64,000 nt of DNA, taken from positions 39,662,635-39,726,634 of the forward strand of contig NC_057718.1 in the NCBI RefSeq assembly GCF_004010195.1, given 5' to 3'. The position numbers and the translations under genes are program-made. A model generated the notes under the pieces. That model searched no databases, was not told where the DNA came from, and saw only the letters and a list, made by a program, of their open reading frames with translations. The stretch is from Chiloscyllium plagiosum. Taxonomy: Eukaryota. This document shows, one piece after another, positions 1 through 63,903 of the stretch. Each line of letters starts with the position of its first letter. Position 1 is the first letter of the stretch.

Positions 1-63
1 TTTGTTTCCCACCTCACTGCAGCCGTGGAGAGAGACGTGCACTGGAAAAACTTGCCAAAGAAG
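1..63 (+). CDS. Creatine kinase-like gene, 3' part of the exon equivalent to CKB/CKM exon 4 (truncated by window start)
   Basis: From nt 3 reads CFPPHCSRGERRALEKLAKE, matching CK 'FCLPPHCSRGERRAIEKL'. Phase-1 GT donor at 64-65. Confidence 0.93.
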
Positions 64-5843: not shown

Positions 5844-6015
5844 CCCTCAGTGCATTAGATGGTGAATTTAAGGGAACGTATCATTCGCTGAAGAACTTAA
5901 GTGAGGAGAAACTTCAGAAACTGACTGCTGCTGGAATCCTTACTGATAACCTTATTTCTCCAATAATGCTTTCATCTGGTATGGCCAGAGATTGGCCAGA
6001 TTCTCGGGGAGTCTG
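5844..6015 (+). CDS. Creatine kinase-like gene, exon 5 equivalent (172 nt)
   Basis: cag acceptor 5841-5843, gtaag donor at 6016. Encodes ALSALDGEFKGTYHSLKNLSEEKLQKLTAAGILTDNLISPIMLSSGMARDWPDSRGVW (CK motif GMARDWPD.RG.W). Phases fit both neighbours. Confidence 0.95.
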
Positions 6016-7056
6016 GTAAGTTTTCATTTTAATCTAAAATGTTTATCAAGGGCAATGGAACTGCATATTGCAACCAAGAATGATAAATCCTGGGCTTGCT
6101 TTTTCCATGTTATTGACTTTCTGATCTTGGTTGTTCTGAGGCACTGGAATCTTATGCCAATCACAAGTGGACTTAGGCCACCTTGTTTCTCCTGCTGGAA
6201 ATCCAAAGTAGCATCAAGAGACTGCTGAGCATTTGGTGAGCAAAATAGTTGGTTACAAAATATCTATAGTCTGGAGATAGCTGTATCGCAAAAGAAAAAA
6301 GAATGGAATCAAATGGAGGTCCTGCCTCAGATTGGTTTCATCCATCCATGAGGGTGACTTTGGAGAAACTATGAGAAATTTGTTTGGCCATAGCAGGAGA
6401 GAATGGGGAACTTACATTTATTAAAAAAAACATTGACATAAGGCAGTTTGTACAAATTGGATCTTCCTGAGAATCTGAATAAATTTGCATGCATTTGTAA
6501 AAATGTTACATCTTCAAGAAATTTTTTTAAAATTATCTTCTTGTTTTTCAAATTCAACCTTATTGCTTTATGATACTTAACAAAGTAGGTGAAAATTTCT
6601 GACTTTCTCAAAACTTAGTTCTCTCAAAACAATAGTTGTGCATTAAATGAAAATTAAATGCTAAAAAGTTAAGATAGTCAGGTGCAGAGAAAGAGCTCAT
6701 GAACAGAATTTAATTGCCGCACCAGGGGTGGGTGGTGGGAAAGAGTTGGAAAACTGGTCAAATCCCCATTGTGGCCATTTTTAGGAAGTCCTAAGGGATT
6801 AAGTCCAAATCTGGCACATACCTGCTCATTGTCGGTCTTCCTGGTTTTCTGGGGGAAATTCCACCAATTCACAGACTTCCTGCTGCTGTGCAGAGAACTG
6901 TTGGCTGATTCAAGGTATTGCAACAGTATTGCAGAGCGACCTACATCAGAGATTGATGATGGAGCCCAAGAAAAAAGGTGGAGCAGTTCTATCAGGGCCT
7001 GCAAGAGGAATTGAATTTCAAAGAAATTTACGTGATCATAAATTTACCTTCTGCAG

Positions 7057-7180
7057 GCACAATGATATGATGAATTTTATTGTCTGGGTCAATAAAGAAG
7101 ACCATCTTCGCATTACTTCCATTCAAGATGGTGGAAATATGAACCAAGTGTTTACACGCTATTGTTTGGGTCTTAAAAAG
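7057..7180 (+). CDS. Creatine kinase-like gene, exon 6 equivalent (124 nt)
   Basis: ctgcag acceptor, gtatg donor. Encodes [41 protein letters not shown] (the CK NEEDHLR box, here NKEDHLR). Confidence 0.95.
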
Positions 7181-7839
7181 GTATGCAATTGCTTTCATTT
7201 TCTCATTACATTCATTTCAAAAAGACCAAATGAATGTAAAATTAAAGCGAAATACAGCAGATGCTGAAAAACTGAAATAAAATTGAATGTTCATAATTTG
7301 TCAACATTAGGATACAAGAAATTTCCTAAGATGTTTCCAACTTCATTTTTTCTATCTGGCAGAAATGTCTGCGAAGTCATAAGTTTATTCTGTGGAATGG
7401 TAAGGCAAATTTCATCAGTATACTCTTCTGCACTTTCCACGAATTGGCTAGATACTTTCTAGATGAAGCTTCAATATTCTCCATTTGGATCAGTGTGTGT
7501 GGCATCAAAAAGGCTAAAATTAAGAATGGTAATTCAGGGAAGATACAAATTAGTTACGTTGCTTTATTCCTTTCTTAGCATAGCGCTTAGCATATTGTTT
7601 GGTATTTCCCAGTAGAAAGCAAGGGAGACTCTTTGCCAGGCTGTAGTTTCTATTGAAAAGCAGCTAATGCGTGTGATGTTGGTAGAAGTTGGGAATCCAG
7701 TCTCACCAGAAAGGAAGGATTAGTGGTGAAAAGATTAGAAAACGACATTCCTTCAAAAATGACATGTATGAGAGTGCCTATATTTATGATGATGTACAGC
7801 TCGACTGCTATTACTTAGCTGGAATTAAGAGTTAGCCTG

Positions 7840-8834
7840 ATAGTGGGTTTGGAGAAGATTTGTAGCTCAGGTTGAAGTTCTGGATGTAGGTTTGCTCGCT
7901 GAGCTGGAAGGTTCATTTTCAGATGTTTTCGTCACCATCCTAGGTAATATCGTCAGTGAGCCTCTGGTAAAGCACTGCTGTCACGTCCTGCTTTTGATTT
8001 ATATGTTTGTTTCCTTGGGTTGGTGAAACAATCATCCCAACACCCACAAATGAAGCTGCATTAGAACATTATCTTAACGAGCCACCACAAACTGCAGCAC
8101 AGGGGAACGATGAGGAGCAGAGGAAAATCACCTATATAGCATATCGAAAAAGAATGGGTACCCAATGAACACAGTCTGTCGGTTTCTCAGCAACAAAACC
8201 AAACAAGCAGACAAACACGCCCAGAAACCCTAGACACTCTCCTCTACATCAAAGACATCTTGGAAATGACTGCCAGACTACTCAGACCTATTGGAATCAT
8301 GGTAGCCCACAAACCCACCAACACACTAAAACACCAGCTAATGAGCTTAAAAGACCCTATACAGACAAGCAAAATGAACATCATTTACAAAATACCTTGC
8401 AAGAACTGTAACAAACATTACATTGGACAAACAGACAGAAAACTAACCACCAGGATACATGAACATGAACTTGTCACAAAAAGACATCACTAGTATCCTT
8501 ACATACAGATGAGGAAGGACACCACTTTGACTGGGACAACCCGTCCATCCTAGGACAAGCCAAACAGAGACATGCACGAGAATTCCTAGATGCATGGCAT
8601 TCCAACCGGAGCTCTATCAACAAACACATTAATTTGGTTCACATCTACTACCCTCTGAGAAAAAGAACAGGAAATGACATCACCACAGGAAATGACATCA
8701 CTAACCTAAGGAAACCCAAGCACATAAACAGAAAGTAGGACATAACACCTGTGCTTCACTTGAGGCTCACTGATATGGTGACAAAACATCTGAAAACGAA
8801 CCTTCCACCTCAGTGAGCAAACTTACATCCAGAA
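7840..8834 (+). mobile_element. Penelope-like element (family A), 5'-truncated, with inverted terminal repeat
   Basis: GIY-YIG endonuclease remnant IIYKIPCKNCNKHYIGQT...RIHEH (ORF 8260-8493). About 7878-7977 is the inverted copy of 8750-8834. 8-bp TSD ttagcctg at 7832-7839 and 8835-8842. Confidence 0.88.
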
Positions 8835-8955
8835 TTAGCCTGGTATTTGAAGAGAAGACTGTTGTTGGAGAGTGTGTCTTTTTCTATTTGTTGATGACTA
8901 GCATTGAGCCATACACCTTTGGAAGTTGAAGAACTTACTCTTGTTCTTGATTTAG

Positions 8956-9145
8956 CTTGAAGAAATATACCAGCAGAAAAAACACCCCTTCATCTGGAAG
9001 GACAATTTAGGATATGTGTTAACCTGTCCTTCAGATCTTGGCACTGGTATGCGGGCAAGTGTCCTTGTTAGACTGAAGTACATCAGTAAACATCAGAAGT
9101 TCGGTGAGATCTTGCAGAGATTACGTCTAGAAAAGAAGCCTACTG
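8956..9145 (+). CDS. Creatine kinase-like gene, exon 7 equivalent (190 nt)
   Basis: tttag acceptor, gtact donor. Encodes LEEIYQQKKHPFIWKDNLGYVLTCPSDLGTGMRASVLVRLKYISKHQKFGEILQRLRLEKKPT; phosphagen-kinase signature CPSNLGT is present as CPSDLGT. Confidence 0.95.
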
Positions 9146-9737
9146 GTACTGTATTATAAGAAAACACTTCTCACTAATGTAAATAACCAATGAAATAGAA
9201 AAAAAGAAGTATGTGGTAACCAAAGTCTGAATAAACTGACAATAACAAACATATAATAACATCTAACACTTCTGCACCTCATGTGAAAAGCTCATGCTAC
9301 ATCATCATAACATACTAACTTCTGACTTGATTTTATTTCAAGAAAATGCACAGAAAGTTTTTACATTTCTGAGGCGGATATCTGATTTGAATATCTTTTT
9401 TGCTTGTTCAATATCCTAACATATATATTTGCATATTGGGCTTATCTATGCACATATTCAAAGCTGGGATATACATATTTTATTATCCAAGTAAATGGTT
9501 TTGTTTTTCCAGTATAGCAATTTTACTGAACTATATAATTTGGCAAATACTTTTATCTTTTAGAATCACCTGTTGGGAGACAGTTACATCAGTGTGATTA
9601 AGTCTTGCACCCATCCCCATAACTGTATTTCAATCTCTATCAGCATTCTTTCCTTGCAAAAACATTAACTAGTCCCTCAAAGTCACAAATAACATCCAGG
9701 AAATATATTTCCCATACCTCTCCAAGCTAAAATTTTC

Positions 9738-9925
9738 AGTCATAGAGATGTACAGCAAAGAAGCAGACCCTTCGGTCCAACTCGTCCATGCCGGCCAGAT
9801 ATCCCAACGTAATCTAGTCCCATTTGCTAGCACCTGGCCCATATCCCTCTAAACCCTTCCTATTCATATATCCATCCAGATGCCTTTTAAATAATGCAAT
9901 TGTACCAGCCTCCACCATTTCCTCA
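9738..9925 (-). mobile_element. CR1/HER1-type LINE 3' tail
   Basis: 'gtcatagagatgtacagc...agacccttcggtccaactcgtccatgc', the same tail as at 25939 and 62770. Confidence 0.8.
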
Positions 9926-11519
9926 TGCTCATGTTTGAATCAGTTCATGGCCAACTTCTATCTCTGTAACTTCTAAACCCAGAAATTTCATTTTGGTTCA
10001 ACTCTGGTGTTTTAAGACACCCCTATTGCCTTTGCCTCACCATTACTGCTTCTATCCTACCCTAAGTTCTGAACTGTGTTCACTAAACTGCCCTCCAACT
10101 TTAAATGTAACCACTCTTTAGTCGAGACTTTAGTCATCCCTTCATAATATTTTTTCCTCAATTTATAAAAACTTCTGTATTTCATTATAGTTGCATTTCA
10201 TCAGTTATACAAGGTGGCATCAGTTGCTTACAACTAGCCTACAGTCCACACTTCTAATATTTACCCCATCTTCAGCCATCAATGTCTTCCAGTGTCCACT
10301 GATGTGCCAGTCCTAAAGCAGGCCATTCCAACTGGGATATTAAACTATTAAAATTGCTTTCCAGACTCTGAGCCTAAATGTGATAGCTCCACTCCCACCA
10401 GACAGGTTGCTTTAAATTCTCCTAATCGGTTTCCATCCACATACCCACTTTGAATTCTGCTCTTGTACTTCAGGATTAAGCAACAACTCTGAGTGCTTTC
10501 ATGCTGCTCCCCAACAAATCTTAACTGTAATCCTGGGCATCAACTATGAACAGCACAGTACTTTTAAAGTGCTGAAATATTTACAATACATATTCCAGAA
10601 ATAGTATACTATAGGAATCTGAGCTCATTTCATTTTGGATTCATTATTGTTTATCTTTTGTTTCACAACAGTGCATTTTTTGGTCTGCTAAATTCTTAGA
10701 AACTCTTAAGTTCCTGTAATGAAACATAAGTTCATTGACCAATTCTTCTATTAGCTATTGATTTACAGCAAAAACTGATTAAATGATAACAGGGCTATAA
10801 TTTGCTGCAGTAAAACAACACATTTGATCACAACATTTATAGGCCATACATTGCTGGAAGTGCTAGCCAATAATGGCACTGAGGTAAATGAGGCAACTGG
10901 GACCAGAGTGAAAAGAGCAAGCAATTAGATTAAACTAATTAGATTGAAGAATTGTGAAATGAACACGATGAGGACTGCGAAGAAAGTTTGAATTAGAATG
11001 GGCAAACAACACCAAATCAGTACAGCAAGACCGCATTGAGAGAGAATGAAAGTACATAACGGCAAAGTAAAAAAAATTAAATACCCCAAAAAACAACACT
11101 GTACTTGTTGTAGTTATGACGGTGTCAGAGAGGTTCATTACCAGTAATTAACAATACATACTCTTTTAAAAACATTTTATAGACAGACAGAATTTTGATT
11201 GGCGTACTTTGTATCTACTGCATAAGTAAGGCAACTTAATCTAGATAAGTGTTGAGACAGTGAGATGTCATTTTCATTAACTTAATGGTGGAATGGAACA
11301 GGAACTTCTTAATTTTTGCATTAAAATGTACATCTGCTTCTCACCTGAAGTTGCTGTAAAATTTGGCATAATTTGAGTTCTATTAGCCTCATGATTTCTA
11401 ATTATTACACCAATATTTGCAGAATCCTTTTCAACATCCTGTTCACTTTTATAGACTATTACAATCACTGAAACTATAGTTATATTTATTAACTGATCCT
11501 GAATCACTGTATCCTGTAG

Positions 11520-11710
11520 GTGCTGTGAATGCTTCTGCTGAAGTCTGGGACATTTCCAATGCAGATCGAATTGGTTTCTCAGAAGTGGAATTGATGCAGT
11601 TGCTAGTTGATGGCATTAAGCTGCTGATCAACATGGATAAACATATTGAACAAGGGAGACCTATTGAAGATCTTTTTCCCACTCAGAAGCAGATGGACAT
11701 ACATGAATAA
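11520..11710 (+). CDS. Creatine kinase-like gene, last coding exon
   Basis: cctgtag acceptor. Encodes [63 protein letters not shown], similar to CKB/CKM 'FDVSNADRLGFSEVELVQ..VDGVKL..PAQK'. Confidence 0.95.
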
Positions 11711-11799
11711 TTATTTACAGCATAGAGATGGAAATTAATATTTCAGAGGAAGGATTCCTGCAAAAAATAACCTATTGATACAAATAAATATGCTTCTGA

Positions 11800-11969
11800 A
11801 ATAAAACTAATTTACAAATGAGAACTGTTACATATTAATTATACATTTTTAAGATTTCAATACTTTTGAATGTAATTTTCTATACAAAGATCAATATCCA
11901 GGAATAAGAAATGTGATTCTTACACTACTGTCAGCAAATCGCAGTGAGCTAGAGGCTCACAGGAATAAA
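11800..11969 (+). terminator. Candidate polyadenylation signals of the CK-like gene
   Basis: AATAAA at 11800-11805 and 11964-11969, downstream of the stop at 11710. Confidence 0.5.
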
Positions 11970-12747
11970 CTGATACATGATAAAATGTAGCTTTGGGTAT
12001 CTAAAGTGATCTCTAACAAATCAATACATGGTTTCTAGTGTGATTTTTTTTCGCCAAATTACTTTTGAAAGAAATAACATCTTGCTAAAGGTACAATTCC
12101 ATGGATCCCAACTGCTCTTAAGAACCCCAGCATTATTCGTTTCTGCCTTGACAGTTAAATCCATCAAGTTGTTCTCTGCTAAACGCGTAGACTGCAGAAG
12201 TTTCTGCATATTCATCCAAAGCAGATACTCTGGCCAGTTTTCTAAAGAATAGACACATTGAAGGCATTTGTCTAAGCACATCTTAGCACAGACTGCAAAT
12301 TCAAACAGATATTCTTCATTTGTATGAATTCAATGAATTGCGAGTGAGAATTTAAAATATCTTAATGCATTCTTGTGGATTGAGGAACAGGAAGAGGATC
12401 TTCAAATCTTCTTGTCTTTGTCATTTTAACAAGTGCTTAAAGAATAACTACCAGCAAGCACTGGACTTGAAATGAAAGTCAAAAGCTGAACTCCTGCCTT
12501 TTCCAGTAAACGAGTGTATGAAAGTACGAACCAGAAAAATAAAGGTGAAACTTTTAGAATTAATCTTATTCTTTAATAAAAGTTTCCTGACATTTTTAAA
12601 TAAAGTGGTCATGAATAGACATACATAGAAGATAAGTAAAATAGAAATGTAAATCTCCATCATCAATTATCAGGTCTTAAAATTACCCAAATGCTCTGAA
12701 CACAACAGGTAATTTCCAAAATTAAATCATTATACATAACGTGCAAC

Positions 12748-13389: not shown

Positions 13390-15005
13390 AAAGATGAATC
13401 TTGCAATCAAATTGTGCCTCTCCCATTTCCTGGATCTCTCAAAGTATTTTGCAACACAATTAATTATTTTTGATAACAAGGTTAGATCACATGGAATACA
13501 AACAGAACTAGCCATTTGGTTACAAAATTGGCTTGAAGACAGGAAATAGAGGGTGGTAATGGAGGATTGGTTTTTCAGACTGGAACCCTGTAACCAGTGG
13601 TGTGCCGCAAGGATCGGTGCTGGGTCCATTGCTTTTTGTCATTTCTATGGAGTCACAGTGCTGTACAGCATGAAACAGACCCTTTCGTGCAACTCGTCCA
13701 TGTTAACCAGATATCCTAAATTAATCTAGTCAAAGTTTGCCAGCATTTGGCCCATATCCCTCTAAACTGTTCCCATTCTTTTCCCCATCCAGATGCCTTT
13801 TAAAATGTTGTAATTGTACCAGCCTCCACCACATTCTCTAACAGCTCATTCCATACACGCACCACCCTTTGCATGAAAACCTTATGCCCTCTAAGTTTGG
13901 ACTCCCCCCACCGCAGGGAAAAGACCTTGTCTATTTACCCTATCCATGCCCCTCATGGTTTTATAAACTTCTATTATAAGGTCACCAGTCAGCCTCTGAC
14001 ACGCTTGGGAAAATACGCCCAGCCAATTTCAGCGTCTCTTTACAGCTCAACTCTCCAACCCTGGCAACATCCTTGTAAATCTATAAATGATGTGGATGTG
14101 AATAGAGGAGGTATGGGTATTAAGTTTGCAGATGACACCAAAATTGGTGGTGGAGTGGACAGCAAAGAAGATTTCCTCAGAGTACAGCGGGACCTTGATC
14201 AGATGGACAAATGGGCTGAGGAGTGGCAGATGGAGTTTAATTTAGATAGAGGTGAGGTGCTGCATTTTGACAGGACAAATCAGAGCAGGAACTGTACACT
14301 AAGTGGTAAGGTCCTGGGCAGTGTTACCAAACAAAGAGACACTGAGGTGCAGGTTCATAGTTCCATGAAAGCAGAATTACAGGGAGACAAGGTAGTGAAG
14401 GCAGTGTTTAGCACGCTTTCCTTTATTGGTCAGTACATTGTGTATGGGAGTTTGGAGGTCATGTTGCAGCTGTACAGGACATTGATTACGCCACTTTTGG
14501 AATACTGTATGCAATTCTGGTCTCCCTACTATAGGAGAGATTTTGCAAAACTTGAAAGGGTTCAGAAAAGATTTACAAGGATGTTGCCAGGGTTGGAGGG
14601 TTTGAGCTGTAGTGAGAGTCTGAATAGGCTGGTGCTGTTTTCCTGGAGTATCGGAAGTTGAGGGGTGACCTTATAGAGGTTTATAAAATCACAAGGGGCA
14701 TGGATAGGGTGAATAGTCAAGGTCTTTTCCCCAGAGTAGCAAAGTCCACATCTAGAGGGCACAGATTCAAGGTGAGAGGGAAAGATTGAAAAGGGATCTA
14801 AGGGGCAACCTTTTCACAGAGAGTGGAGCATTTATGGAAACAGCTGCCAGAGGTGATGGTGGTGGAGGAGGCTGGTACAATTAAAATAATTTAGAGGGAT
14901 ATGGGCCAAATGCTGGCAAAGGGGACTAGATTAGTTTAGGATATCTGGTTGGCATTGACAAATTAGATTGAGGGGCCTGTTTTTGTGCTGTACATCTTTA
15001 TGATC
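13390..15005 (+). mobile_element. CR1-type LINE 3' part (RT domain), interrupted by an inverted CR1 3' fragment at about 13648-14080
   Basis: RT motifs GVPQGSVLGP, KFADDTKIGG and LEYCMQFWSP. The RT sequence breaks at about 13647 and resumes at about 14081. Confidence 0.88.
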
Positions 15006-18207: not shown

Positions 18208-19590
18208 GGGGCAGCATGGTGGCTCAATAGTTAGCACTGCTGCTTCACAGCACTCGGGACTCGGGTTTGAATCCAGCTTTGGGTGACCATCTGTGTGGAT
18301 ACAGAACTGGCTCAAAGGTAGAAGACAGAGAGTGGTGGTGGAGGGTTGTTTTTCAGACTGGAGGCCTGTGACCAGTGGAGTGCCACAAGGATCGCTGCTG
18401 GGTCCTCTACTTTTTGTCATTTACATAAATGATTTGGATGCGAGCATAAGAGGTACAGTTAGTAAGTTTGCAGATGACACCAAAATTGGAGATGTAGTGG
18501 ACAAAGAGGGTTACCTCAGGTTACAACAGGATCTTGATCAGATGGGCCAATGGGCTGAGAGGAGGCAGATGAAGTTTAATTCAGATAAATGCGAGGTGCT
18601 GCATTTTGGGAAAGCAAATCTTAGCAGGACTTATACACTTCATGGTAAGGACCTAGGGAGTGTTGCTGAACAAAGAGACCTTGGAGTGCAGGTTCATAGC
18701 TCCAAGTGGAGTCACAGGTAGATAGGATAGTGAAGGCAGCGTTTGGTATGCTTTTTTTTATTGGTCAGCGTATTGAGTATAGGAGTTGGGAGGTCATTGT
18801 TGCGGCTGTACAGGACATTGGTTATGCCACAGTTGGAATATTGTGTGCAATTCTGGTCTCCTTACTATCGGAAAGACGTTGTGAAACTTGAAAGGGTTCA
18901 GAAAAGATTTACAAGGTTGTTTCCAGGGTTTGAGGATTTGAGCTATAGGGAGAGGCTGAACAGGCTGGGGCTGTTTTCTCTGGAGCATCAGAGGCTGAGG
19001 GGTGACCTTATAGAGGCTTATAAAATTATGAGGGGCATGGATAGGATAAATAGGCAAAGTCTTTTCCCTGGGGTCAGGGAGTCCAGAGCAAGAGGGCACA
19101 GGTTTAGTGTGACAGGGGAAAGATATAGAAGAGACCTACGGGGCAACTTTTTCACACAGAGGGTGGTATGTGTACGGAATGAGCTGGCAGAGGAAGTGGT
19201 GGAGGCTGGTACAATTACAACATTTAAGAGGCATTTGGATGGGTAAATAAATAGGAAGGGTTTGGAGGGATATGGGCCAGGTGCTGGCAGGTGGGACTAG
19301 ATTGGGTTGGGATATCTGGTCTGCATGGACAGGTTGGACTGAAGGGTCTGTTTCCATGCTGTACTATGACTATGTGTGTCTGAGTTTCCTACAACAGTCC
19401 AAAGATATGCATACCAGGTGATTTGGTTAAGCTAAATTGCCCAGTGTTCAGGGATGTGTAGGTGAGGTGCATTAGTCATGGGTAAATGTACAGTAATAGG
19501 GTAGCATAGGTCGGGGTGGATTACCCTTCAGAGGGTCACTGTGGATTTGTTGGGCCAAAGGGCCTGTTCCCACACTGTAGGGATTCTATG
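18208..19590 (+). mobile_element. HE1-type SINE (about 18208-18298 plus 19373-19590) split by a CR1 3' fragment (about 18293-19372)
   Basis: SINE tRNA head with A box TGGCTCAATAG and B-box-like GGTTTGAATCC; CR1 RT ORFs 18293-18721 and 18743-19246; SINE body resumes at 'gtttcctacaacagtccaaagat'. Confidence 0.85.
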
Positions 19591-33179: not shown

Positions 33180-33534
33180 TTACAACTTTAGCTCATTTGC
33201 AATTTTGGATGCAATGTTCTTGAATGCTATAGATGTTCCAGATATTCGCTTAAAGCGAACACCATTTAGAGACAAACGTGGCAGCTTGCAGACCTCCATT
33301 TCCCATTGAACCAAGTTGTCCTGCCGAGCATCTCCATGAACGCAGAACAAAAGGAACCTTTCTCTTTGCTCATAGTCACAGTTGTTAGCGTCCAGCACCT
33401 TTCGAATCTCTCGCATCATATCATTGGGATCCATTGAACTGGTTGTCTTCATGCTCCATGTGAACCTCAAAGATCTTGGTTTTGCATCTTTGTTGTCATC
33501 CCTTTCTCTGTCCTTTGCTTCTCCTGCCATATTT
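33180..33534 (-). CDS. MARK1: MAP/microtubule affinity-regulating kinase 1, last coding exon (KA1 domain)
   Basis: tttcag acceptor. Encodes ...[104 protein letters not shown] and HGDARQD fit MARK1 better than MARK3 (DPGD, HGDGHAE). Confidence 0.93.
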
Positions 33535-35999
33535 CTGAAAATAAATGTAGACCATGCAGTCATTCAAGATTAGAGAAACTATATTTAGTTTCTTTGGCTC
33601 CTTTTATAGCCATGAATCCATCATATTTCAAAATCTATTTAAGGTTGTAAATTCAACGCAAATCTCAGAAACTACTTGTGATTTCTTAATGAGGTATTTT
33701 TGCATCATCTACACTATCAGCAATTTCTAGTTAAAGCAGTACCTTTTAATTTAAATAATTTCCAGCTAACACATTTGAGATTGTTTAGCTGTCTTCCAAA
33801 CTTCTTTTCTCCAAATTTCTCATTAAAAAAACTGATACCATATAGCTTGGGCAAAAATATTGAATGGTACTGCAGTTTGCCTGTGGATAGACTAAAGATT
33901 AATATTTCAATCATTTCTATAATCTGTAGTAGATGTTTAATATTAGTTTTTGAAATCTGGTACTGCTACTCGTGGTCTTTGCTAGAGTAATGTCAAATTT
34001 AGATTTATCGGAGGATACACCTCTACAGCACATTTAAGAATTCACTAAAAATTAATTTAGTACTGTAGAGACAGTAGACTGACACTGGAAATAAATCAGT
34101 AAAATAGATTAGTTTTACTGAAGTCCTGTATTGCAACTACTAGCAGTTATTTTTCAAATTTACTTTTAAAACAATAGTTCATCATTTTGGTCTAATCATG
34201 AGGTTATATAACAAATAAATGGCTTCCAGCTTCAGCATGCATAAAAGGACAATTAACAATCAAACATACAGAGAAAATCTGTTTTTCATTGTTTTTAAAC
34301 TCCTTCCCAAAATGTTCTATACTTTATCCACATGATTCTTCCTGAGAGGGAAGATTCAGGAAATGGGTACACTTTCTTAAGTGATGAAATAGTGAATCAG
34401 CATGATCCTCATAATCAGGAATATTGTAACTATTTTAGTAGCATTTCCTGGGCTTCAATGAAGAACTAAGATCTTTTTAACTCACCTCTACTATCTCGGT
34501 GAATTGCACCACACTATGAAAATGGAAACATTGACTAATCATAATTAATCAATCTCCATTAATCTACAACAGACCCCCAACCCACCACCCACTTTCCATT
34601 TCTTAGTGCTAGACCAGCTTTGCTGGAGGGGGAGAAAGAGAGCGCAAGAGAGCAAAACTTAGTAGCTTCATTATTCCAGTTCTCGGTGTCCAACTGGAGT
34701 GACATGTCAGAAATATAAAATCAATAACTAATTGGATCTGATGCAAGAATTATAAGTCCAAAATGCGATTAATTTGCATTGTAAATACGGCAGGAAACTT
34801 CAATGGAGAAGATGATAGCAAAGGTGCAAATTTTCAGTGTTCTCAAGGCATACGGTTGAGTGTTGCAAATCATACAACAATCTGGAGAATCCAAATTAAT
34901 GCATATTCTCTTCGTCACCATAAATGCGCATTACTTTTCCAGCAGTTTCTGCATCAAAGTAATGAGAATATCTCCAAACTATTTTAGGATTTTATAGATG
35001 TATAGAAGTCATATTTTACAAATTAATGTTTCCATTCTCCATCATATTTCAGTTCCATGTGCAGATGAAAAATTCTGTATTAAGTAATCTTTCTGTATTC
35101 ACTGAAAGCCAATCATAAGGTAAACGTATTCCAGGCAAGTGTGTCCTTCGTTGAGTTCTTTGAACCAGAAGGGAGAAATCCTGATTTTAATTTTGAAGCT
35201 GAAATGAATTGTAGACTAATCCAATTGCTGGAAACATGCAAAAACCATTAATAGTTTTAATTAGGGAGTCCATCTCATTCTAAGTTTGTGGCGATTAAAA
35301 GAAAGTTACTTCTTGAATCAAGGATAATATTTTGTTTCAATGAGAAGTCTGTAACAAGAACTACAAAATTATTCTGCTGTATTCCACCTGACTAAAATAA
35401 AGAGATAACACTATTGGAATATCTAAAAATCAACCAACAGCCCAGAGAATTTATGATGAAAACTAGGATAGCAAGATAAAATCTGACATTGTAATAGGAA
35501 TAAAACCAAAGGTAAAGTTGCCCTAGTGCTACCAGACCACACAGCTGCTCTCTCTTATTAGAGAGAAATGACTAATGGTGGTTTAACCTGAGGTTTACCA
35601 TTGCTTCAGGCAAGGAGACAAGTTGGGAAGGAGGATTTTGCATGGTAACCCCAGAGCACATTTTCAGCTCATATCATATTAGTGATCTAACTCACATATT
35701 GAAGGAGTCTTGAGCTTTGTTTTGCACTTAATTGAGGATACTCCAGAGTGAAATCTACTGCTGTACTTGACTCGAATTCCTCCTATTGGAGGTAAAATCT
35801 ATTCATCTGCATAAAAATACAGCAAGCCCCAAAACTAACAGCAGCAATTTGAAGCTAAGGCAGAAACTCGGCAGTCATCCAGCTGTTTAGAACTGCACTC
35901 ACCTGGTGTCATTCATAACTGTCTAGCCATAGCCTGAGAATCACCTGCAGTGAAGTATCTTCCTAGTCCCTCTGGCATATTCCCAAGGAACTATATCTG

Positions 36000-43640: not shown

Positions 43641-45028
43641 ATTCAGTTCCCATCTACATTTACAGCAGCATGTACACGGGCCAGTGTACTCTAGTAACCG
43701 ATGCCATTCCTCAGGATCACACTGGATGGTGAAGCAGGCTGAATGGTCTCATTCTGCTCCTATTTCTTATGTTCAAATAAACATTAACCATAAGCTTGAT
43801 CAAGACCTCCAACTAGAGGGGCATCACCGCCAGATATCTTCTTACTGGTTGCCTACAAGCATCAACTTGCTGGCAACTCTGGACAATTAATATCTTGATA
43901 ACTTAAAAGGTATCTGTAGTCTTCTTACTGCCATCCTAGTCATGATCACCCAATTCAGAATAAGGATCAAATCAAGGAACATTGTGGTTTGCGTGGATCA
44001 GCCATTGTGGCAGCTTTGTGAAAGTAGGCTAGAAAAGCCACCTTACATTTTAATGATCATATTATGAATTTTACAAAATTGATAAGTTTTCAATCAGCAC
44101 TGCCTTGGTTATTATGTGGCAGATTGGATGCTCCATTCCTTATTAAGCTTGCAAAGAGCAGGAGGTTTTACAATCAAAGGGTGATCTGCTCCACCAGATT
44201 ATCATCCAAATTCTAATCTGGAAAATTCATGGTTCCCTCAAATAATAAGGTTTCTGATGAAATAATGAATTTGAGCAGCCTTACTATCTGGACCATTCAA
44301 GATTATTAAAGCAGACTGTGCAATTTTATAATGACACGGAAATGCAAATGAGTGAGATGCTTTAGTTCCTGAAAGTTGAGAAGTAGAGGATACAAAAGCA
44401 AGCAAAAACTCAATGTCAGCTTGATGCAAAGCATTGGTTGGAGCTTTGTTTGAAGTTTTGGGTATTCCATTTTAGGAAGGCTATAAAGCAGAGGTAAACT
44501 CCAAATACAGGAAAATCATTTTAAAAATATAGATATGAAAATTCTGTGGGGGTTTGTCCATTAAAGTTCAGAAAGCTACAGAGATTGTGTTAGAAGAGTT
44601 GTGAGAAGGGAAATAGTAGTAGATATTTCACTTGAGAATGAAATGTTAACAGTAGCAACAAATATGAAAAGAAAACTGAAGCAGAGACCAGAAAAAAAAT
44701 TTTCTGCTGCTCAGTGTCTTCACCTGAATTTTTTTTATAGTAGTTACATGAATCAAAACAAATCTTCAATGAGAAGGAGAAACAAAATACCAATTCTTAT
44801 TCATCTCACTTACTCTCAAGTATAATGATAGATGAATTACCACAAGTCACCACTAAGGGAGCTATTGTTAACAGTTTATAACTAAGACAGTGAATCTGCT
44901 ATAAAATATTCTTTATGTAAATAAGAGAGGACATTGGGCTGTGGGGCGGGGAAAGTTAATACACTTTTTATTACTTCTACTCAAAACGCAAAAGATCATT
45001 GAACATTTAGAATCACTCAGTATCTTAC

Positions 45029-45289
45029 CTGCGGGCAAATTTGGACGTGATCTTGCTTATTATACCAGTGGAAGTTCCTCTTCGAGCTTGTGAGAGGGCA
45101 CCAGTATCATGTGACAACGTTGGTGAAGCTGGTGGTCCATTGTACGTGGCAGTTCGTCGTTCTCGTAACTGCCCACCGTGAAAAGTGCTTCGGCTGGAGC
45201 TTCCTCGAGGGAAGTGGGTTCGATCTGGAGTGGTAGTGCTAATACTGTGTGCAGAAGGAGAAGCAGCAGGGACCCTTTGGGCTGCAGTG
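45029..45289 (-). CDS. MARK1: MARK1 spacer-domain exon (261 nt)
   Basis: actcag acceptor, gtaag donor. Encodes [38 protein letters not shown]...[18 protein letters not shown], including the RSTFH aPKC-site motif of MARK kinases. Confidence 0.94.
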
Positions 45290-46108: not shown

Positions 46109-46285
46109 CTGGGCCGGTAACTTTCACTGCTGTCTTCAATGGAAGGGAGCGTGACCTTGATTGGATGCCCAGAGGCTGACATGGATTTCTGGTGTCGAGG
46201 TCGTGCTGATGGTACTCCAGATGACACTGCAGGGCTTGCGACAGATGTGGAAGTACTGCTTGCACAAGCAGACATTTCAGTTAGG
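46109..46285 (-). CDS. MARK1: MARK1 spacer-domain exon (177 nt)
   Basis: cataag acceptor, gtaagt donor. Encodes LTEMSACASSTSTSVASPAVSSGVPSARPRHQKSMSASGHPIKVTLPSIEDSSESYRP (MARK1 'ARPRHQKSMSTSGHPIKVTLP'). Confidence 0.92.
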
Positions 46286-49015
46286 CTTATGGGTCGAGGC
46301 AAAGAGAAAGATAGAAGCCAAAATGTAACACAAAATACCTGATCAAACAAAGTGGCTCTTTGTAATCAGGGCTCTTCACGTAATGTTTGGGTTTCACATA
46401 ATTGACATGACTACAATAATGGGCAGTGTGGTGCTGGAAAAGCACCGCATCGGAGGAGCGGGAAAATCGATGTTTCAGGCGAAAGCCCTTCATCAGGAAT
46501 GAGTCAGGGAGCCTCGGGGGTGGAAAAATAAATGGGAGGGGGTGGGGCTAGGGGAAGGTAGCGGAAAGTGCAATAGGTGGATGGAGGTGGGGTAAAGGTG
46601 ATAGGTTGCAGGAAGTGTGGAGTGGATAGGTGGGAAGCAAGATGGACAGGCAGGACAGGTCATGAGGCCGGTGCTAAGCTGGAAGGTTGGAACTGGGATA
46701 AGGTGGGGGAGGGGAAATAAGGAAACCTATGAAATCCACATTGATGCCATGGGGTTGGAGGGTCCTGAGGGGGAAAATGAGGCATTCTTCCTCCAGGCAT
46801 CGTGTGGTAAGGGAGTTCCGATGGAGGTGGCCCTGGACCTGCATGTCCTTGGTACAGTGGGAGGGGAAGTTGAAGTGTTTGATCACAGGGTGGTGGGACT
46901 GGTTGGTGCAGGTGTCCTGGAGATGTTCTCTAAAGCACTCTGCGAGTAGGCGCCCTGTCTCCCCAGTGTAGAGGAGACCACATCGGGAGCAACGTATGTA
47001 GTAAATGACATGTGTGGAAGTGCAGGTGAAACCTTGGAGGGCGTGAAAGGCTCCTTTGGGGCCTTGGACGGAGGTGAGAGGGGAAGGTGTGGGTGCAAGC
47101 TTTGCAATTCCTGCATTGGCAGGGGAAGGTGGGTTTTTGGGGGTTGTGGTCCTGACGAGGTAGTCATGAAGGGAATGATCTTTAAGGAAAGCAGATAGGG
47201 GTGAAGAGGGAAATATCTCTCTGGTGGTGGGGTCTGTTTGTAGATGGTGGAAATGGCAGAGGATGATGTGATGTATACAGAAAATGAGCACTAGGGGGGT
47301 TCTGTCCTTGTTGCAGTTGGAGGGGTGGAGTTCAAGGGTGGAGGTTTGGGAAGTGGAGGAGATGCGCTGGAGGGCATCATCAAATCCACCAACTTCCACA
47401 GCTACCTGAATTACACCTTCTCCCACCCTGCCTCCTGTAAAAATGCTAACACTAATTCCCAATTCCTTCACCTCCGCTGCATCTGCTCCCAGGAGGACCA
47501 ATTCCACAACAGAACACACCAGATGGCCTCCTCCTTTAAAGATTGCAATTTCCCCAGAAGATGTCAGTGTTGATTTGGTCATTGTTGATGGAGATGGAGC
47601 AGTCCAAGAAGGGCAGGGAGGTGTCTGAGATAGTCCAATTGAATTTAAGGTCGGGGTGGAATGTTGTTGGTGAAGTTGATGAACTATTCAACCTCCTCGT
47701 GGGGGCACTCAGTGGTGCTGATGCAGTCATCAATGTAGCGGAGGAAAAGGTGGGGAATGGTGCCCGTGTAACTGCGGAAGGTACACAGTTCCACGTCCCC
47801 GACAAAGAGACAGGCATAGCTGAGGCCCATACGGATGCCCATGGCCACCCCTTTTATTTGGAGGAAGTGGAAGGATTCAAAAGAGAAATTAATGAGGGTG
47901 AGGACAAGTTCAGCCAAACGAATTAAGAGTGTTAGTGGAAGGGTACTGGTGGGGATGTTAGGACAGGAAGAAACGGAGGGCTTGGAGGCCCTGGTCATGG
48001 CGGATGGCGGTGTACAGGGACTGGGATGTCCATGGTGAAGATGAGGCATTGGGGGCCAAGGAAATAAAGATCTTGGAGGAGGTAGAGGGTGTGGGTGGTG
48101 CTCCGAACGTATGTGGGGAGTTCCTGGACCGGAGGGATAGGACAGTATCGAGGTATTTGGAGATGAATTCGGTGAGTCAGGAGCAGGTTGAGATGAAGGG
48201 TCGGTCAGGGTAACCAGTCTTGTGGATATTGGGTAGGAGGTAGAACCAGGCAGAGCGGGGTTCCCGAACTTTCCATCAAGACTCTCGCCCACCTTCCGAG
48301 GACTCCTTCGCCTGCCTCCAACACACCACATCCACCTGATACCCTGTGCCGGTCTGTTACCCGCCCGCGACCTCTTTATTTCCAACTGCCGCCGTGATAT
48401 TGACCGCCTCAACCTGTCCACCCTACTCACCCACTCCAATCTCTCATCCTCTCAATGCGCAGCCCTCCACTCCCTCTGCTCCAATCCCAACCTCATCATC
48501 ACAAAGGGGGGGGTGCAGTGGTCGTTTGGCGCACTAACCTCTACACCACTGAAGCCAGGCGTGAACTTGAAGACAACTCCACCTACCGCCCCCTCGACCA
48601 CAACCTCACCTCCCATAACCAAACCATCTCCTAGACCGTACACAACCTCATCACCACAGGGGATCTCTCACCCACAGCTTCCAACCTCACAGTTCGGGAA
48701 CCGTGCATCGCCTGATTCTACCTCCTGCCCAAGATTTTTAGGCCTGTCTATACCAGCCAACCCATCGTCTCAGCCTGCTCTTGTCTCACCAAATTCATTT
48801 CCACCTACCTTGATACTGTGCTATCCCCCCGGTCCAGGAACGCTCCACATACGTTTGGGACACCACCCACACCCTCCACCTCCTCCAAGACTTTTGTTTC
48901 CCTGGCCCCCAACACCACACCTTCACCATGGACATCCAATTCTTAAAAACGTCCATCCGCCATGACAAGAGCCTCCAAGCCCTCCATTTCTTCCTCTCCC
49001 AAAGTCCCACCAGTC

Positions 49016-51717
49016 CTCACTCTCAGCGGAGCAGGTAAGGGCTGTTTGGCAGTGGCTGCTTGAAGGCTCGGTGACGTTTGTTTAACGGTTTAAATTTGAT
49101 AGTTTTTTTTTTAATAAAAGCGTGGAGCGGACCCGGAAGCTGGTGTAGCGCAAGCTTACCTGGGTAGGTTTTTTTCCCTATAAAAGCGCGCAGGAGAGTA
49201 GAACAGGGACAGGATTGGCTGTTGCAGGTTCCAGGGTTTAAATGTTTTAGTAGAATCAGAGGTGGGGGTAAAAGAGGGGGAGGTGTGGCATTGCTTGTCA
49301 AAGATAGGATTACAGCGGTGGAAAGGACGATGGACGAAGACTCGCCATCTGAGGTAGTTTGGGCTGAGGTTAGGAATAAGAAAGGTGAGGTCACCCTGTT
49401 AGGAGTTTTCTACAGGCCTCCTAATAGTCCTAGAGACGTATAAGAAAGGATTGCGGGGATGATTCAGGAGAAGAGTGAAAGTAATAGGGTGGTTGTTATG
49501 GGGGACTTTAACTTTCCAGATATTGACTGTGAAAGCTATAGCTTGAGTTCGTTAGATGGGTTGGCGTTTGTTCAATGTGTGCAGGAGGGTTTCCTGACAC
49601 AATATGTAGACAGGCCAACAAGAGGTGAGGCCATACTGGATTTGGTTCTGGGTAACGAACCAGGCCAGGTGTTAGAATTGGAGGTAGGTGAGCACTTTGG
49701 GGACAGTGACCACAATTCGGTGACTTTTACTCTAGTGATGGAGAGGGATAAGTGTGCACTGCAGGGCAAGAGTTACAGCTGGGGGCAGGGAAATTATGAT
49801 GCGGTGAGGCACGACTTAGGATGCGTGGCTTGGAAAAGTAGACTTCAAGGTAAGGGCGCAATTGATATGTGGAGCTTGTTCAAGGAGCAACTATTGAGTG
49901 TCCTTGATAAGTATGTACCTGTCAGGCAGGGAGGAAAGGGTCGTGTGAGCGAGCCCTGGTTTAATAAGGAATTGGAATCCCTTGTTAAAGGGAAGAGGGC
50001 GGCCTATGTAAAGATGAGGCGCGAAGGTTCAATTGGGGCGATTGAAAGTTATAAGGTAGCCAGGAAGGATCTGAAGAGAGAGCTAAGAGCAGCAAGGAGG
50101 GGACATGAAAAGTCCTTAGTTGGTAGGATTAGGGAAAACCCAAAGGCTTTCTATAGGTATGTCAGGAATAAAAGAATGACTAAGGTAGGAATAGGTCCAG
50201 TCAAGGATAGTAGTGGGAAGTTGCATGTGGAGGCTGAAGAGATTGGGGAGACACTGAATGAATACTTTTCATCAGTATTCAATCAGGAACAGGACATTAT
50301 TGTCAATGTGAATACTGAGTCACAATTAAGTAGAATGAATGGCTTTGAGGTATGTAGAGAAGAGGTGTCGGAAATTCTGGAAAGGGTGAAAATAGAAAAG
50401 TCCCCTGGGCCTGATGGCATTTACCCTAGGATTCTCTGGGAAGCAAGGGAGGAGATTGCAGAACCATTGGCCTTGATTTTTATGTCCTCATTGTCNNNNN
50501 NNNNNNNNNNNNNNNNNNNNNNNNNNNNNNNNNNNNNNNNNNNNNNNNNNNNNNNNNNNNNNNNNNNNNNNNNNNNNNNNNNNNNNNNNNNNNNNNNNNN
50601 NNNNNNNNNNNNNNNNNNNNNNNNNNNNNNNNNNNNNNNNNNNNNNNNNNNNNNNNNNNNNNNNNNNNNNNNNNNNNNNNNNNNNNNNNNNNNNNNNNNN
50701 NNNNNNNNNNNNNNNNNNNNNNNNNNNNNNNNNNNNNNNNNNNNNNNNNNNNNNNNNNNNNNNNNNNNNNNNNNNNNNNNNNNNNNNNNNNNNNNNNNNN
50801 NNNNNNNNNNNNNNNNNNNNNNNNNNNNNNNNNNNNNNNNNNNNNNNNNNNNNNNNNNNNNNNNNNNNNNNNNNNNNNNNNNNNNNNNNNNNNNNNNNNN
50901 NNNNNNNNNNNNNNNNNNNNNNNNNNNNNNNNNNNNNNNNNNNNNNNNNNNNNNNNNNNNNNNNNNNNNNNNNNNNNNNNNNNNNNNNNNNNNNNNNNNN
51001 NNNNNNNNNNNNNNNNNNNNNNNNNNNNNNNNNNNNNNNNNNNNNNNNNNNNNNNNNNNNNNNNNNNNNNNNNNNNNNNNNNNNNNNNNNNNNNNNNNNN
51101 NNNNNNNNNNGACCCAAAGGCACAGCCTTAGACTAAAGGGAAGACCTTTTAGAATGGAGATAAGGAGAAATGTTGCAGTTGTAAAGGACTCTGGTGCGGC
51201 CGCATCTGGAATATTGTGTGCAGTTTTGGTCGCCATACTATAGGAAGGATGTGGTGGCACTGGAACGGGTGCAGAGGAGGTTTACCAGGATGTTGCCTGG
51301 TATGGTAGGAAGATCGTATGAGGAAAGGTTGAGGCACTTGGGGTTGTTTTCATTGGAGAAAAGAAGGTTTGGGGTGACTTGATAGAGGTGTACAAGGTGA
51401 TTAGGGGTTTAGATAGGGTTGACCATGAGAGCCTTTTTCCACGTATGGAGTCAGCTATTACGAGGGGGCATAGCTTTAAATTAAGGGGTGGTAGGTATAG
51501 GACAGATGTTAGGGGTAGATTCTTTACTCAGCGAGTCGTGAGTTCATGGAAAGCCCTGCCAGTAGCAGTGGTGGACTCTCCCTCTTTATGGGCATTTAAA
51601 CGGGCATTGGATAGGCATATGGAGGATAGTGGGCTAGTGTCGGTTAGGTGGGCTTGGATCGGTGCAACATCGAGGGCCAAAGGGCCTGTACTGTGTTGTA
51701 TTTGTCTATGTTCTATG
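49016..51717 (+). mobile_element. Young CR1 LINE inserted into the PLE RT (spans the assembly gap)
   Basis: Endonuclease motifs RGGGVALLV, YRPPN, MGDFN, LDLVL and SDHN, and KSPGPDG, nearly open from 49222 to 50495 (one stop at 49441). 3' RT end and (ttctatg)-type tail at about 51700-51717. Confidence 0.9.
50496..51110. other. Assembly gap (615 N)
   Basis: Run of n characters. Confidence 1.
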
Positions 51718-54700
51718 TACCCTTCCACCGACACTCTAATTCGTTTGGCTGAACTGGTCCTCACCCTCAATAATTTCTCCCTTGTATTCTCCCACTTCTT
51801 CCAGAGGAGAGGGGTAGCTATGGGCACCTGCATGGGCCCCAGCTATGCCTGTCTCTTTGTCAGCTAGATGGAACAGTCTATCTTCTGTAGTTACACCAGC
51901 ACCATTTCCTCCGTTACATTGATGACTGCATCACCACATGACTGCATCGTGCTCCCACGCGGAGGTTAAACAGTTCATCAACTTCACCAATACATTCCAT
52001 CCTAACCTTAAATTCACCTGGACCATCTCAGATACCTCCCTGCCCTTCCTGGACCTCTCCATCTCCATCAACAGTGACCGACTCAACACGGGCATCTTCT
52101 ACAAACCCACTGACTCCCACAGATACCTGGATTACACCTCCTCCCATCCTGCCTCCTGTAAAAATGCTCTCTCTTATTCCCAATTCCTCCACCACCACCG
52201 CATCTGCTCCCAGGAGGACCAGTTTCACCACAGAACACACCAGGTGGCCCCCTTTTTTAAAGACTGCAATTTCCCCTCCAGTGCATCTCATTTCCTGCAC
52301 CTCCGCCCTCAAACCCCACCCCTCCAGAATCTCCCAGTCCTCATTTCCACCCCACCAATCTCCGTATACCTCCCATCATCCTCTGTCATTTTCACCACCT
52401 ACAAATGGACCCCACCACCAGAGATATATTGCCCTCTCCACCCCTATCCGCTTTCCGTAAAGACCATTCCCTTTGTGACTACTTCATCAGGTCTACGCCC
52501 CCCAACAACCCACCCTCTCCTCCCAGCACCTTCCTCTGCCACTGCAGGAATTGTAAACCCTGTGCCGACACCTCCCCCCTCATCTCTGTCCAAGGCCCAA
52601 AAGGTGCCTTCCACATCCATCAAAGTTTCACCTGAACTTCCACACGCCATTTATTATAACCGTTGCTCCCGATGCGGTCTCCTCTACATTGGGGAGACAG
52701 GACACCTACTCGCAAAGCACTTCAGAGAACAACTCCGGGACATCCGCAGCAATTAACCTCACCACTCCGTGGTCAAACTCCCCCTCCCACTCTGCCGAGG
52801 ACATGCAGGTCCTGGGCCTCCTCCATCGCCACTCCTTCACCACCCAACGCCTGGAGGAAGAACGCCTCATTTTCCGCCTTGGGACCCTCCAACCCCAGGG
52901 CATCAATGTGGATTTCACAAGTTTCCTCATTTCCTCTCTCCACACTTTTATCCCCAGTTCCAACCTTCCACCTCAGCACTGCCCTCATGACCTGTCCATC
53001 TTCCTTCCCACCTATCTGCTCCACCCTCCCTTTGACCTATCACCTTCACCCACACCTTCATTCACCTACTGCACTCTCAGCTACTTCTTGCCAGCCCCAA
53101 CCCCCTCCCATTTATCTCTCCACCCCCGAGGCTCCCAGTCTCATTCCTGATGAAGAGTTTTTGCCAAAACGTCGATTTTCTTGCTCCTCTGATGCTGCCT
53201 GACCAGCTGTGCTTTTCCAGCACCACACTCTCGACTCTAATCTCCAGCATCTGCAGTACTTACATTCGCCTAGCAATAGTAGGCAGGCTAAGTCTGGCTT
53301 ACTCAGTAATTTACAGGCTAAACTTTATATTCCAGTGTAATCAAAGTTTATGGGGGAAAACGCAGGAAAGTGGAGTTGAGGTTTTTCAGATCAGCTGAGA
53401 ATTCACTGAATGGCAGAGCAGATTCAAAGGGCTGAACAGTCTACATCTGCTCCTACATTTTACCAGCATATAGCTTCTGCTTTTTGAGAACAAAACATAC
53501 TATTTTATGGGATGTAGGCATTGCTGGCAAAGTCAGCATTTGTTGCTTGTCCCTAAATGCCCTTGAACTAACTGACTTGCTAGATGTTTTCAGAGGGCAG
53601 TTAATTCATATTCCTGGTGACCGAAGGTCAATGCTGTCGATCTAGGATTTAATCTGTGCCAGGCTTAGTGAATACAGCAAATTTTCTTCCCTAAGTGATA
53701 TAAGTGAACCAGACTGGTTTTTATGGCAACTGTCACTAGTTTCACAGTCACCATCATGGAGACAACTTTTCAGTTCCTGATGTATTCATTGAATTTACCA
53801 GCTGTCACAGTAAAACCTGAAGCTGTGTCCCCAGAATATTAGTCTCTGGGCTGCCAATCAATTGACATTACACTAATCCACCATCTCCACCACACTGTCG
53901 TAGATTGTAGGCCACTCATCCACAGGTGGGAAGAAAATATTGCCACTGCCTATATGAGTGGCCTATTTCAGCACACTATGCACCCAGATATTTACACACC
54001 AAAACTAACCAAGCTGTTGTAAAACAGCTTGAATAGTGACACTGAACAGAAACAGATGTCACTTCAGAATTTGAAAACTGTCCTGTTGGTGCTAGAAATC
54101 TGAAATAGAAACAGAAAATGCTTAAATACTTAGGCAACATTTGTAGAGGGACAACAGAGCCATCTTCAGAATGGTCTTGGTTCTCTAGTTGCACACAGGG
54201 AGACAGGCATTAACTGCAGTGGTAGAGCTATATTGCCAAAATAGGGCCACCTCTCAGAATTTACTTCTATTATTGGTTCCACCAGTTGATTTAAGACCTA
54301 ACAATTTTGTCAATCAAAATGAATTTAAAAAATATATGACCTGAATAGAACAAAACATACAACACCTCAAAACATTTACTGACTGCACGTACCAATGTAG
54401 CTTTTAGTCCTTTCTGTTCTGTCACTACCCTTCATAACTCGGATGAAACAACTGGCAGTAGTGTTTCATGTTTAAAGTCAACTGCTTTACCTCATTCAGG
54501 ACAGAGGTTACACACCCTCCCACTTGTCCTGCAGCAGTATTAACAATCTTCTAAAAAATTGTCCAAATTCTCACAATGTAGTATTGTTTAAAATTCTTGT
54601 TTTTAATTAATTTCATCAGCACTGAAAACTTCGCTACCTTTTCTGCCAAATTTGTTTTGACAGTGCTACTTACCTTCTGAAATTCTTGATTAGCCCTTAA

Positions 54701-63805: not shown

Positions 63806-63903
63806 CTGCTGTCTTTACCATTCTGCATGGCAGAGTATCGATCACTGGTCGAGCGTTCACACACATAGGTGTTCCTCCTTGTCATACTAGGGAGCATGTT
63901 ATT
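63806..63903 (-). CDS. MARK1: MARK1 spacer-domain exon (98 nt); the gene continues beyond the window
   Basis: tttcag acceptor, gtgag donor. Encodes NNMLPSMTRRNTYVCERSTSDRYSAMQNGKDS (MARK RRNTYVC motif). Phase 2 end matches the 46285 exon. Confidence 0.92.

Follow-up and report, generated by a model that had tools for sequence, protein, structure and literature searches.

Why does a creatine kinase (CK)-like gene keep an open reading frame for a whole CK fold after its active site has been taken apart? The question is raised by a 64,000-nucleotide stretch of the genome of the bamboo shark Chiloscyllium plagiosum (C9:39662635-39726634; hereafter the window), in which an earlier note, made from the letters alone, had read part of such a gene as a possible pseudo-enzyme, a heterodimer subunit or a kinase of changed specificity. 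The best explanation of our results is that this is a third cytosolic CK gene from the early vertebrate genome duplications, which had turned into a pseudo-enzyme by the time cartilaginous and ray-finned fishes separated and has been kept since. Very probably, any phosphate transfer between ATP and creatine by its product is too slow to be useful.

The gene comprises nine coding exons and encodes 408 amino acids, with no stop codon or frameshift inside and one terminal stop, and its product is identical to RefSeq XP_043551696.1, ‘creatine kinase M-type-like’ of the same species (Table 1). Four exons within the window have AG/GT borders and form a single open frame when joined, and window positions 1-63, which the earlier note did not recognise, are the end of the preceding exon. 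Two further CK-type exons lie up to 7.6 kb upstream of the window, and an N-terminal extension is specified by two small exons farther upstream. In size, the internal exons equal those of CKB and CKM in the same genome and show the 193/155/133/172/124/190-nt pattern of cytosolic CKs. A genome search for a second or retro copy returned this single locus.

In run X1, a 1505-nt contig links the four window exons at their exact borders, with zero to one differing letters per piece, while contigs of X9 join exons 5-6 and 7-8 and a contig of X12 joins exons 7-8. The 9145/11520 joint (GT..AG) is found in contigs from three of four runs, which confirms that the 2-residue deletion proposed for the 320s loop is real. 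These three runs are not recorded as RNA, and the contigs are best read as spliced RNA because their joints fall at GT..AG borders in a single-copy gene. No reads on the CK-like exons were present in the approximately 2% of the raw single-cell RNA run X13 that was read. The gene name is likewise absent from the searched supplement files of fish expression papers (PMC12759076, PMC13342237, PMC11291920, PMC8517238, PMC8405809, PMC5939014 and PMC8462739), where its digits matched only inside numbers; several of these tables are marker or differential lists and were searched by gene name rather than Ensembl identifiers, and the result has no bearing on expression. A 6-nt in-frame deletion near window position 11700, just 5′ of the stop codon, occurs in X1 and X12 contigs (two of four runs) and not in X9, and may be an allele or a species difference; the short C-terminal tail that carries this site is a carpet shark addition.

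The active site in the bamboo shark and other fishes

Residues are numbered after the 381-aa mammalian CKM (P0091), which matches the numbers used in the cited papers. In an alignment to 47 canonical CKs, the nucleotide-side substitutions listed in the earlier note are all present (H191G, E231K, M240I, N286D, H296L, R320K, G321P, G324A and D326N), as are the residues it gave as kept (E232, R236, C283, S285, R292, V325 and D335); all these positions, changed or kept, are invariant in 47/47 canonical rows, the assignments at 325-326 depending on gap placement in the 320s loop. The losses therein claimed for nucleotide binding thus stand, but their confinement to it does not. Recovery of the upstream exons, which the note had proposed as a check, adds T59P, H66Y, I69T, R96Y, R130Q and R132S. 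Loss thus strikes both substrate sides: T59P, H66Y, I69T and R96Y fall on the guanidino (creatine) side, and a further two phosphate arginines disappear through R130Q and R132S. For E231, H191, H66 and D326, the roles in CK are presumed ones.

PMC12387690 names five phosphate-binding arginines in CK, R130, R132, R236, R292 and R320. The shark protein reads Q, S, R, R and K at these positions, two kept plus K320, compared with all five in 47/47 canonical CKs. I69, a creatine-pocket residue according to the CK literature, is replaced by T69, and the same pocket and loop carry Y66 and Y96 in place of H66 and R96 and retain V325. The acidic NEED motif reads NKED, and E232, C283 and S285 are retained. 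On its phosphate arginines, NEED motif and creatine pocket, the protein fails as an active CK and should not be filed under EC 2.7.3.2, despite its database name. According to PMC10557616, single changes at R132, R96, H296 and C283 of human CKB bring kcat/Km down to 2-28%, with 2.1, 17.6, 7.7 and 10.1% for R132H, R96P, H296R and C283S, respectively. The shark protein differs at R96, R132 and H296 simultaneously, and at other positions besides, by substitutions other than those of the CKB mutants; the combined substitutions would be expected to cause a near-total loss of catalysis.

Sharks, rays, skates and a chimaera all have orthologues, and so do sturgeons, paddlefish, bichirs, gar and numerous teleosts, for which the NCBI name is often zgc:172076. 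Our counts rest on 19 cartilaginous, 111 ray-finned and 47 canonical CK rows, each row being a protein cluster or member, with isoforms and near relatives among them; rows that are partial or fused (P0007, P0011, P0385 and P0419), redundant forms (P0003, P0012, P0061 and P0318) and odd canonical rows (P0092, P0107 and over-long models) were left out. R96, H191 and E231 are kept in 0/130 family rows. At most three of the five phosphate arginines remain in each of the 19 cartilaginous rows and at most two in each of the 111 ray-finned rows, versus 5/5 in 47/47 canonical rows.

The earlier note had described the loss as coordinated, which is not borne out for a single event. R96, R132, H191, E231 and R320 are lost in 19/19 cartilaginous rows, whereas H296L (2/19), H66Y (2/19), M240I (4/19) and the 2-residue deletion are recent and local: H296L, H66Y and a loop deletion of 2-3 residues are restricted to bamboo and epaulette sharks, and skates have a separate 1-residue deletion. 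V325 is kept in 6/19 cartilaginous rows. Ray-finned rows carry R130E (103/111), C283S (109/111) and S285A (110/111); the counts there at 191 and 320-326 are alignment-dependent, these segments being shortened. Changed specificity becomes the weaker alternative, since C283, S285 and R130 are each kept in 0/111 ray-finned orthologues.

The remodelled segment at window positions 5924-5956 (CK residues 188-198), which is altered throughout the family, falls in the CKB region of putative ASB9 docking. The CKB-ASB9 structure 6v9h is among the structure matches.

In 15 columns, both fish groups share a fixed residue that is peculiar to the family. Zebra and white sharks share 83% identity in the CK-like protein and 93% in CKB. 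Against the paralogues, pN is 0.26-0.28 and pS 0.79-0.80, with dS saturated; the sequences indicate constraint over most of the path separating the CK-like gene from them. The claim that the fold is under selection, and not that of a decaying pseudogene, is supported, the 408 codons being unbroken with the upstream exons included. No lobe-finned fish or tetrapod orthologue is among the named rows listed (best 120 of 132; best 120 of 853), which is no proof of loss, and two unnamed rows besides the query are nearest to teleosts. A search of the ESM Atlas returned ordinary CK clusters only.

Fold, dimer face and possible partners

The 98% identical orthologue P0002 belongs to the phosphagen kinase family by its matches to PF02807 (85 bits) and PF00217 (181 bits; cut-offs 25.7 and 22.4, respectively). 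Its predicted structure, modelled from a 150-row alignment that included canonical CKs, has a pLDDT of 90.1 and a CK-type fold, with TM scores of 0.85-0.87 against CKM and CKB structures. The N-terminal extension is less certain in this model (pLDDT 51-77 over residues 1-40). It contains a new, conserved peptide of about 23 residues, with an MW..P motif in 89/130 family rows, some of the others being models that start later.

PMC4754747 gives E19, D55, D62, R148, K156, R209 and D210 as CK interface residues, to which PMC12387690 adds D54. All eight are present in the shark protein. Columns invariant in canonical CKs are kept by both fish groups at 11/16 interface positions, 2/25 active-site positions and 68/192 positions elsewhere, and in the bamboo shark protein at 15/16, 12/25 and 131/192, respectively, where the interface columns are taken from the model and the active-site list is our own choice. 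When zebra shark CKB and P0002 are modelled as a pair, they meet on the canonical face with a score of 0.80, against 0.01 for the best control; the runs agree in at least 65% of contacts and the partner pLDDT is at least 83. The mark applied to such models, which this pair passes, is reached by 51/78 solved and 2/108 mismatched microbial pairs, and by 39/65 and 2/126 eukaryotic pairs.

We favor a pseudo-enzyme acting by contact, because loss at both substrate sites is accompanied by an intact fold and dimer face and by a new conserved N-terminal peptide; a pseudo-enzyme or heterodimer subunit, as the earlier note had it, is the best reading of these data. In the proposed mechanism, a duplicated cytosolic CK beside MARK1 would have lost its active site on both substrate sides and kept its fold. 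The resulting pseudo-enzyme would pair through the ordinary CK dimer face with a CKB or CKM subunit, and the hybrid dimer, with one working site of two, would damp CK activity; alternatively, the N-terminal peptide may set the location, so that CK is anchored there. We put about even chances on the protein dimerising through this face, most likely with active CKB or CKM to leave one working site, and damping or anchoring CK in this way. A bolder version is possible, though we hold it only tentatively: most fishes may have a dedicated non-catalytic CK subunit, a CKB/CKM ohnologue seemingly lost in tetrapods, whose hybrid dimers with active CK and own N-terminal peptide place or throttle the phosphocreatine shuttle subcellularly, and in sharks the pocket (K231, C283, E232 and R236) may sense nucleotide or phosphocreatine without turnover.

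Several observations weigh against a pseudo-enzyme that pairs with active CK. At the interface, D62 is replaced by E in 111/111 ray-finned rows, and K156 is retained in 1/111. The success of the CKB and P0002 model points to likeness to solved CK dimers rather than to binding by this copy, because CK dimers have already been solved; the pair model cannot separate CK family members, and a conserved dimer face suits a homodimer equally. In the active site, 15 pocket positions together carry a net charge of +3 in the shark protein, the same as in canonical CK, and E232, C283, S285, R135 and R236 are kept in 19/19 cartilaginous rows. Because these residues are kept, K231 is invariant and the pocket charge is unchanged, some ligand binding may persist in the cartilaginous orthologues.

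The conserved interface would also suit a pseudo-enzyme that needs no active CK and serves as a structural element or scaffold, paired with itself or with some other partner; we judge this reading unlikely. The 15 family-specific columns and the N-terminal peptide, conserved in both fish groups, imply constraints of the family's own, and the family-wide changes H7Y, H26N and N28T lie near the N-terminal dimer region. Nevertheless, the interface keeps the canonical E19, D54, R148, R209 and D210 with no compensatory drift, as would be expected of a protein with an unchanged partner, and the CKB hybrid models well, by likeness.

Less probable still is that the cartilaginous protein works as a phosphotransferase, weakly or with a new specificity, or that it senses nucleotide or phosphocreatine without catalysis, K231 taking the place of the lost acid/metal contact or of a lost arginine. 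Besides the five residues kept in every cartilaginous row, R341 (18/19), D335 (17/19) and R292 (15/19) are widely retained, K231 and G191 are each invariant (19/19), the cartilaginous pocket charge runs from +1 to +4, and the efficiency that single CKB mutants retain (PMC10557616) would agree with residual function. The complete loss of R96, R132, H191, E231 and R320 argues against it, as does the free variation among species of R130, of position 69 and of the 320s loop, which would not be expected of a specificity pocket under selection; according to PMC12387690, the phosphate arginines bind ATP whichever the guanidino substrate. Nor can it hold for most ray-finned forms, which have a pocket charge of −2 to +1 together with R130E, C283S and S285A. 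A decaying pseudogene or assembly artefact, to which the faster evolution relative to CKB, the 6-nt deletion allele near the stop and the absence of exon reads from X13 might point, is scarcely credible given an unbroken frame with spliced contigs in three of four runs, open full-length orthologues from chimaera to teleosts, pN far below pS, and a loss aimed at the active site that spares the interface.

Probable origin beside MARK1 and relation to known kinases

Fold, exons and descent place the CK-like gene in the cytosolic CK lineage. It lies tail to tail with MARK1 on C9 (Table 1), and the same MARK-CK arrangement is found on C10 and C41, where CKB and CKM, both with intact active-site motifs, likewise converge on an exon for a MARK-type KA1 domain. 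Of the strong KA1 matches, the fourth, on C45, stands without a listed CK match next to it. The KA1 genes on C10, C41 and C45 are called MARK-type by their KA1 match only. Three paralogous MARK-CK blocks would fit the early vertebrate genome duplications. C1orf115 (PF15828), which we take to be a neighbor of MARK1 in human, is on the same contig approximately 8.7 Mb from the locus and lends weak support.

In quick trees, the family forms one clade (support 98-100) that includes the orthologue zgc:172076 of zebrafish, and it groups with CKB and CKM, apart from the flagellar and mitochondrial types, with a support of 99, or 98 in a tree with three long invertebrate rows inside. Its sister placement varies, being beside CKB+CKM (88), with CKB (89; p-AU 0.144) or open in a third tree. 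A pre-vertebrate origin through the degenerate CKs P0285, P0264 and tardigrade P0209 is not favored: it has a support of only 82 with long branches of 0.76-2.12, and the canonical profile scores higher than the family profile for all three, so that we treat it as probable long-branch attraction. P0285, which groups weakly, resembles the fish family by eye at the N26/T28 region, Y96, C129 and S132.

Compared with CKB and CKM (EC 2.7.3.2; PF02807 + PF00217), the shark protein is alike in fold, domain pair, exon sizes and phases, dimer-face residues and the tail-to-tail MARK gene, at 56-57% identity. It differs in lacking R96, R130, R132, R320, H191, E231, H66, I69 and H296, in two extra coding exons for the N-terminal peptide and in faster evolution. 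Zebrafish zgc:172076 (NP_001107070.1, ‘uncharacterized protein LOC563955’; creatine kinase in UniRef) is an orthologue that shares the N-terminal peptide and the 15 derived columns; the ray-finned forms are more decayed (C283S, S285A, R130E and a deleted loop) and have 45-54% identity to the shark protein. Arginine, glycocyamine, taurocyamine and lombricine kinases share the common fold and give lower matches. As a rule, those kinases change the guanidino pocket and keep the phosphate arginines and NEED motif, the opposite of the pattern in the shark protein.

Pseudo-enzyme paralogues can regulate an active relative, as do antizyme inhibitor and pseudokinases, and the likeness to antizyme inhibitor (an ornithine decarboxylase-related protein) and to pseudokinases, as a dead duplicate with fold and interaction surface, is one of analogy only, these being other families. 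The novelty lies in the vertebrate lineage, which seems undescribed, and in the likely partner, and not in the principle, because the wider phosphagen kinase family holds many degenerate domains: one or more of the five arginines are missing from 213/359 domains excised from database proteins, a count that is alignment-dependent and concerns mostly unnamed multi-domain proteins. Among unnamed eukaryote proteins, P0285, P0264, P0298, P0209 and many multi-domain proteins in the range P0163-P0308 carry degenerate domains that look independent.

No paper on this gene, nor any functional study of zgc:172076, was found in the literature searched, which mostly excludes the subscription journals that hold much CK enzymology. 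The vertebrate CK family is usually described as two cytosolic and two mitochondrial genes, all catalytic. We know of no other built-in pseudo-enzyme regulator of the vertebrate CK system, and this protein, if our reading is true, would be the first known to us. An extra cytosolic ohnologue, present from chimaera to teleosts, whose active site is dismantled while its dimer face is intact, points to an unrecognised non-catalytic role in the phosphocreatine system. It is also probable that many fish proteins entered in databases as ‘creatine kinase M-type’, ‘B-type’ or ‘testis isozyme’ have no enzymatic function, which touches the interpretation of fish transcriptomes and proteomes. Zebrafish zgc:172076 makes the idea directly testable.

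Features of the window and minor observations

Table 1 Coding exons of the CK-like gene and the neighboring MARK1 exon. Plain numbers are window positions.
Feature	Position	Strand	Remarks
Coding exon 1a (ATG)	C9:39647876-39647891	+	Upstream of window
Coding exon 1b	C9:39650020-39650066	+	Upstream of window
Coding exon 2	C9:39655062-39655260	+	Upstream of window
Coding exon 3	C9:39659917-39660071	+	Upstream of window
Coding exon 4 (133 nt), 3′ end	1-63; start C9:39662565, 70 nt before window	+	R130Q, R132S; R135, R148 kept
Coding exon 5 (172 nt)	5844-6015	+	H191G at 5933-5935, within the remodelled segment 188-198; R209 and D210 of the dimer face retained
Coding exon 6 (124 nt)	7057-7180	+	NEED to NKED (E231K at 7094-7096); E232, R236 kept
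Coding exon 7 (190 nt)	8956-9145	+	C283, S285, R292 kept; N286D at 9034-9036, H296L at 9064-9066, R320K at 9136-9138, G321P
Last coding exon, to TAA	11520-11710	+	320s loop 2 residues short; C-terminus 5 residues longer than CK
3′ untranslated region, approximate end	11711-12023	+	Contigs to 11827 (X1), 12015 (X9), 12023 (X12); AATAAA at 11783, 11800, 11964
MARK1 last exon (KA1 domain)	33180-33563	-	Convergent with CK-like gene, stop codons 21.5 kb apart

Other MARK1 exons run through the rest of the window on the minus strand, at 45028-45270, 46123-46296 and 63811-63888. In a Larimichthys crocea protein named MARK1 (P0419), the MARK1 C-terminus follows the N-terminal half of zgc:172076; it is probably a mis-joined gene model and hints that zgc:172076 and MARK1 are neighbors in teleosts too.

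Elsewhere in the genome, two tandem CK loci approximately 53 kb apart (C40:16133401-16146052 and 16186344-16206592) have exon matches unlike the cytosolic pattern and are probably mitochondrial CK genes. Near C10:39666000, a weak second match to the N-terminal exon of CKB lies in the intron behind it and is possibly an alternative or decayed exon copy. A CKB-like protein of Megalops cyprinoides (P0092) keeps the five arginines and NEED and carries H66R, R96Q, G323D and V325E. Glu at 325 is presumably a mark of glycocyamine or arginine preference, and P0092 may be a fish CK in which specificity has truly changed.

Retrotransposon-like and short interspersed repeat fragments occupy window positions 7850-8800, 9740-9925, 13804-14661, 18287-19246, 46674-53150 and 60655-61743; Pfam matches to endonuclease and reverse transcriptase fall at 49444-50480 and 60655-61110. 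A run of N lies near 50500-51120.

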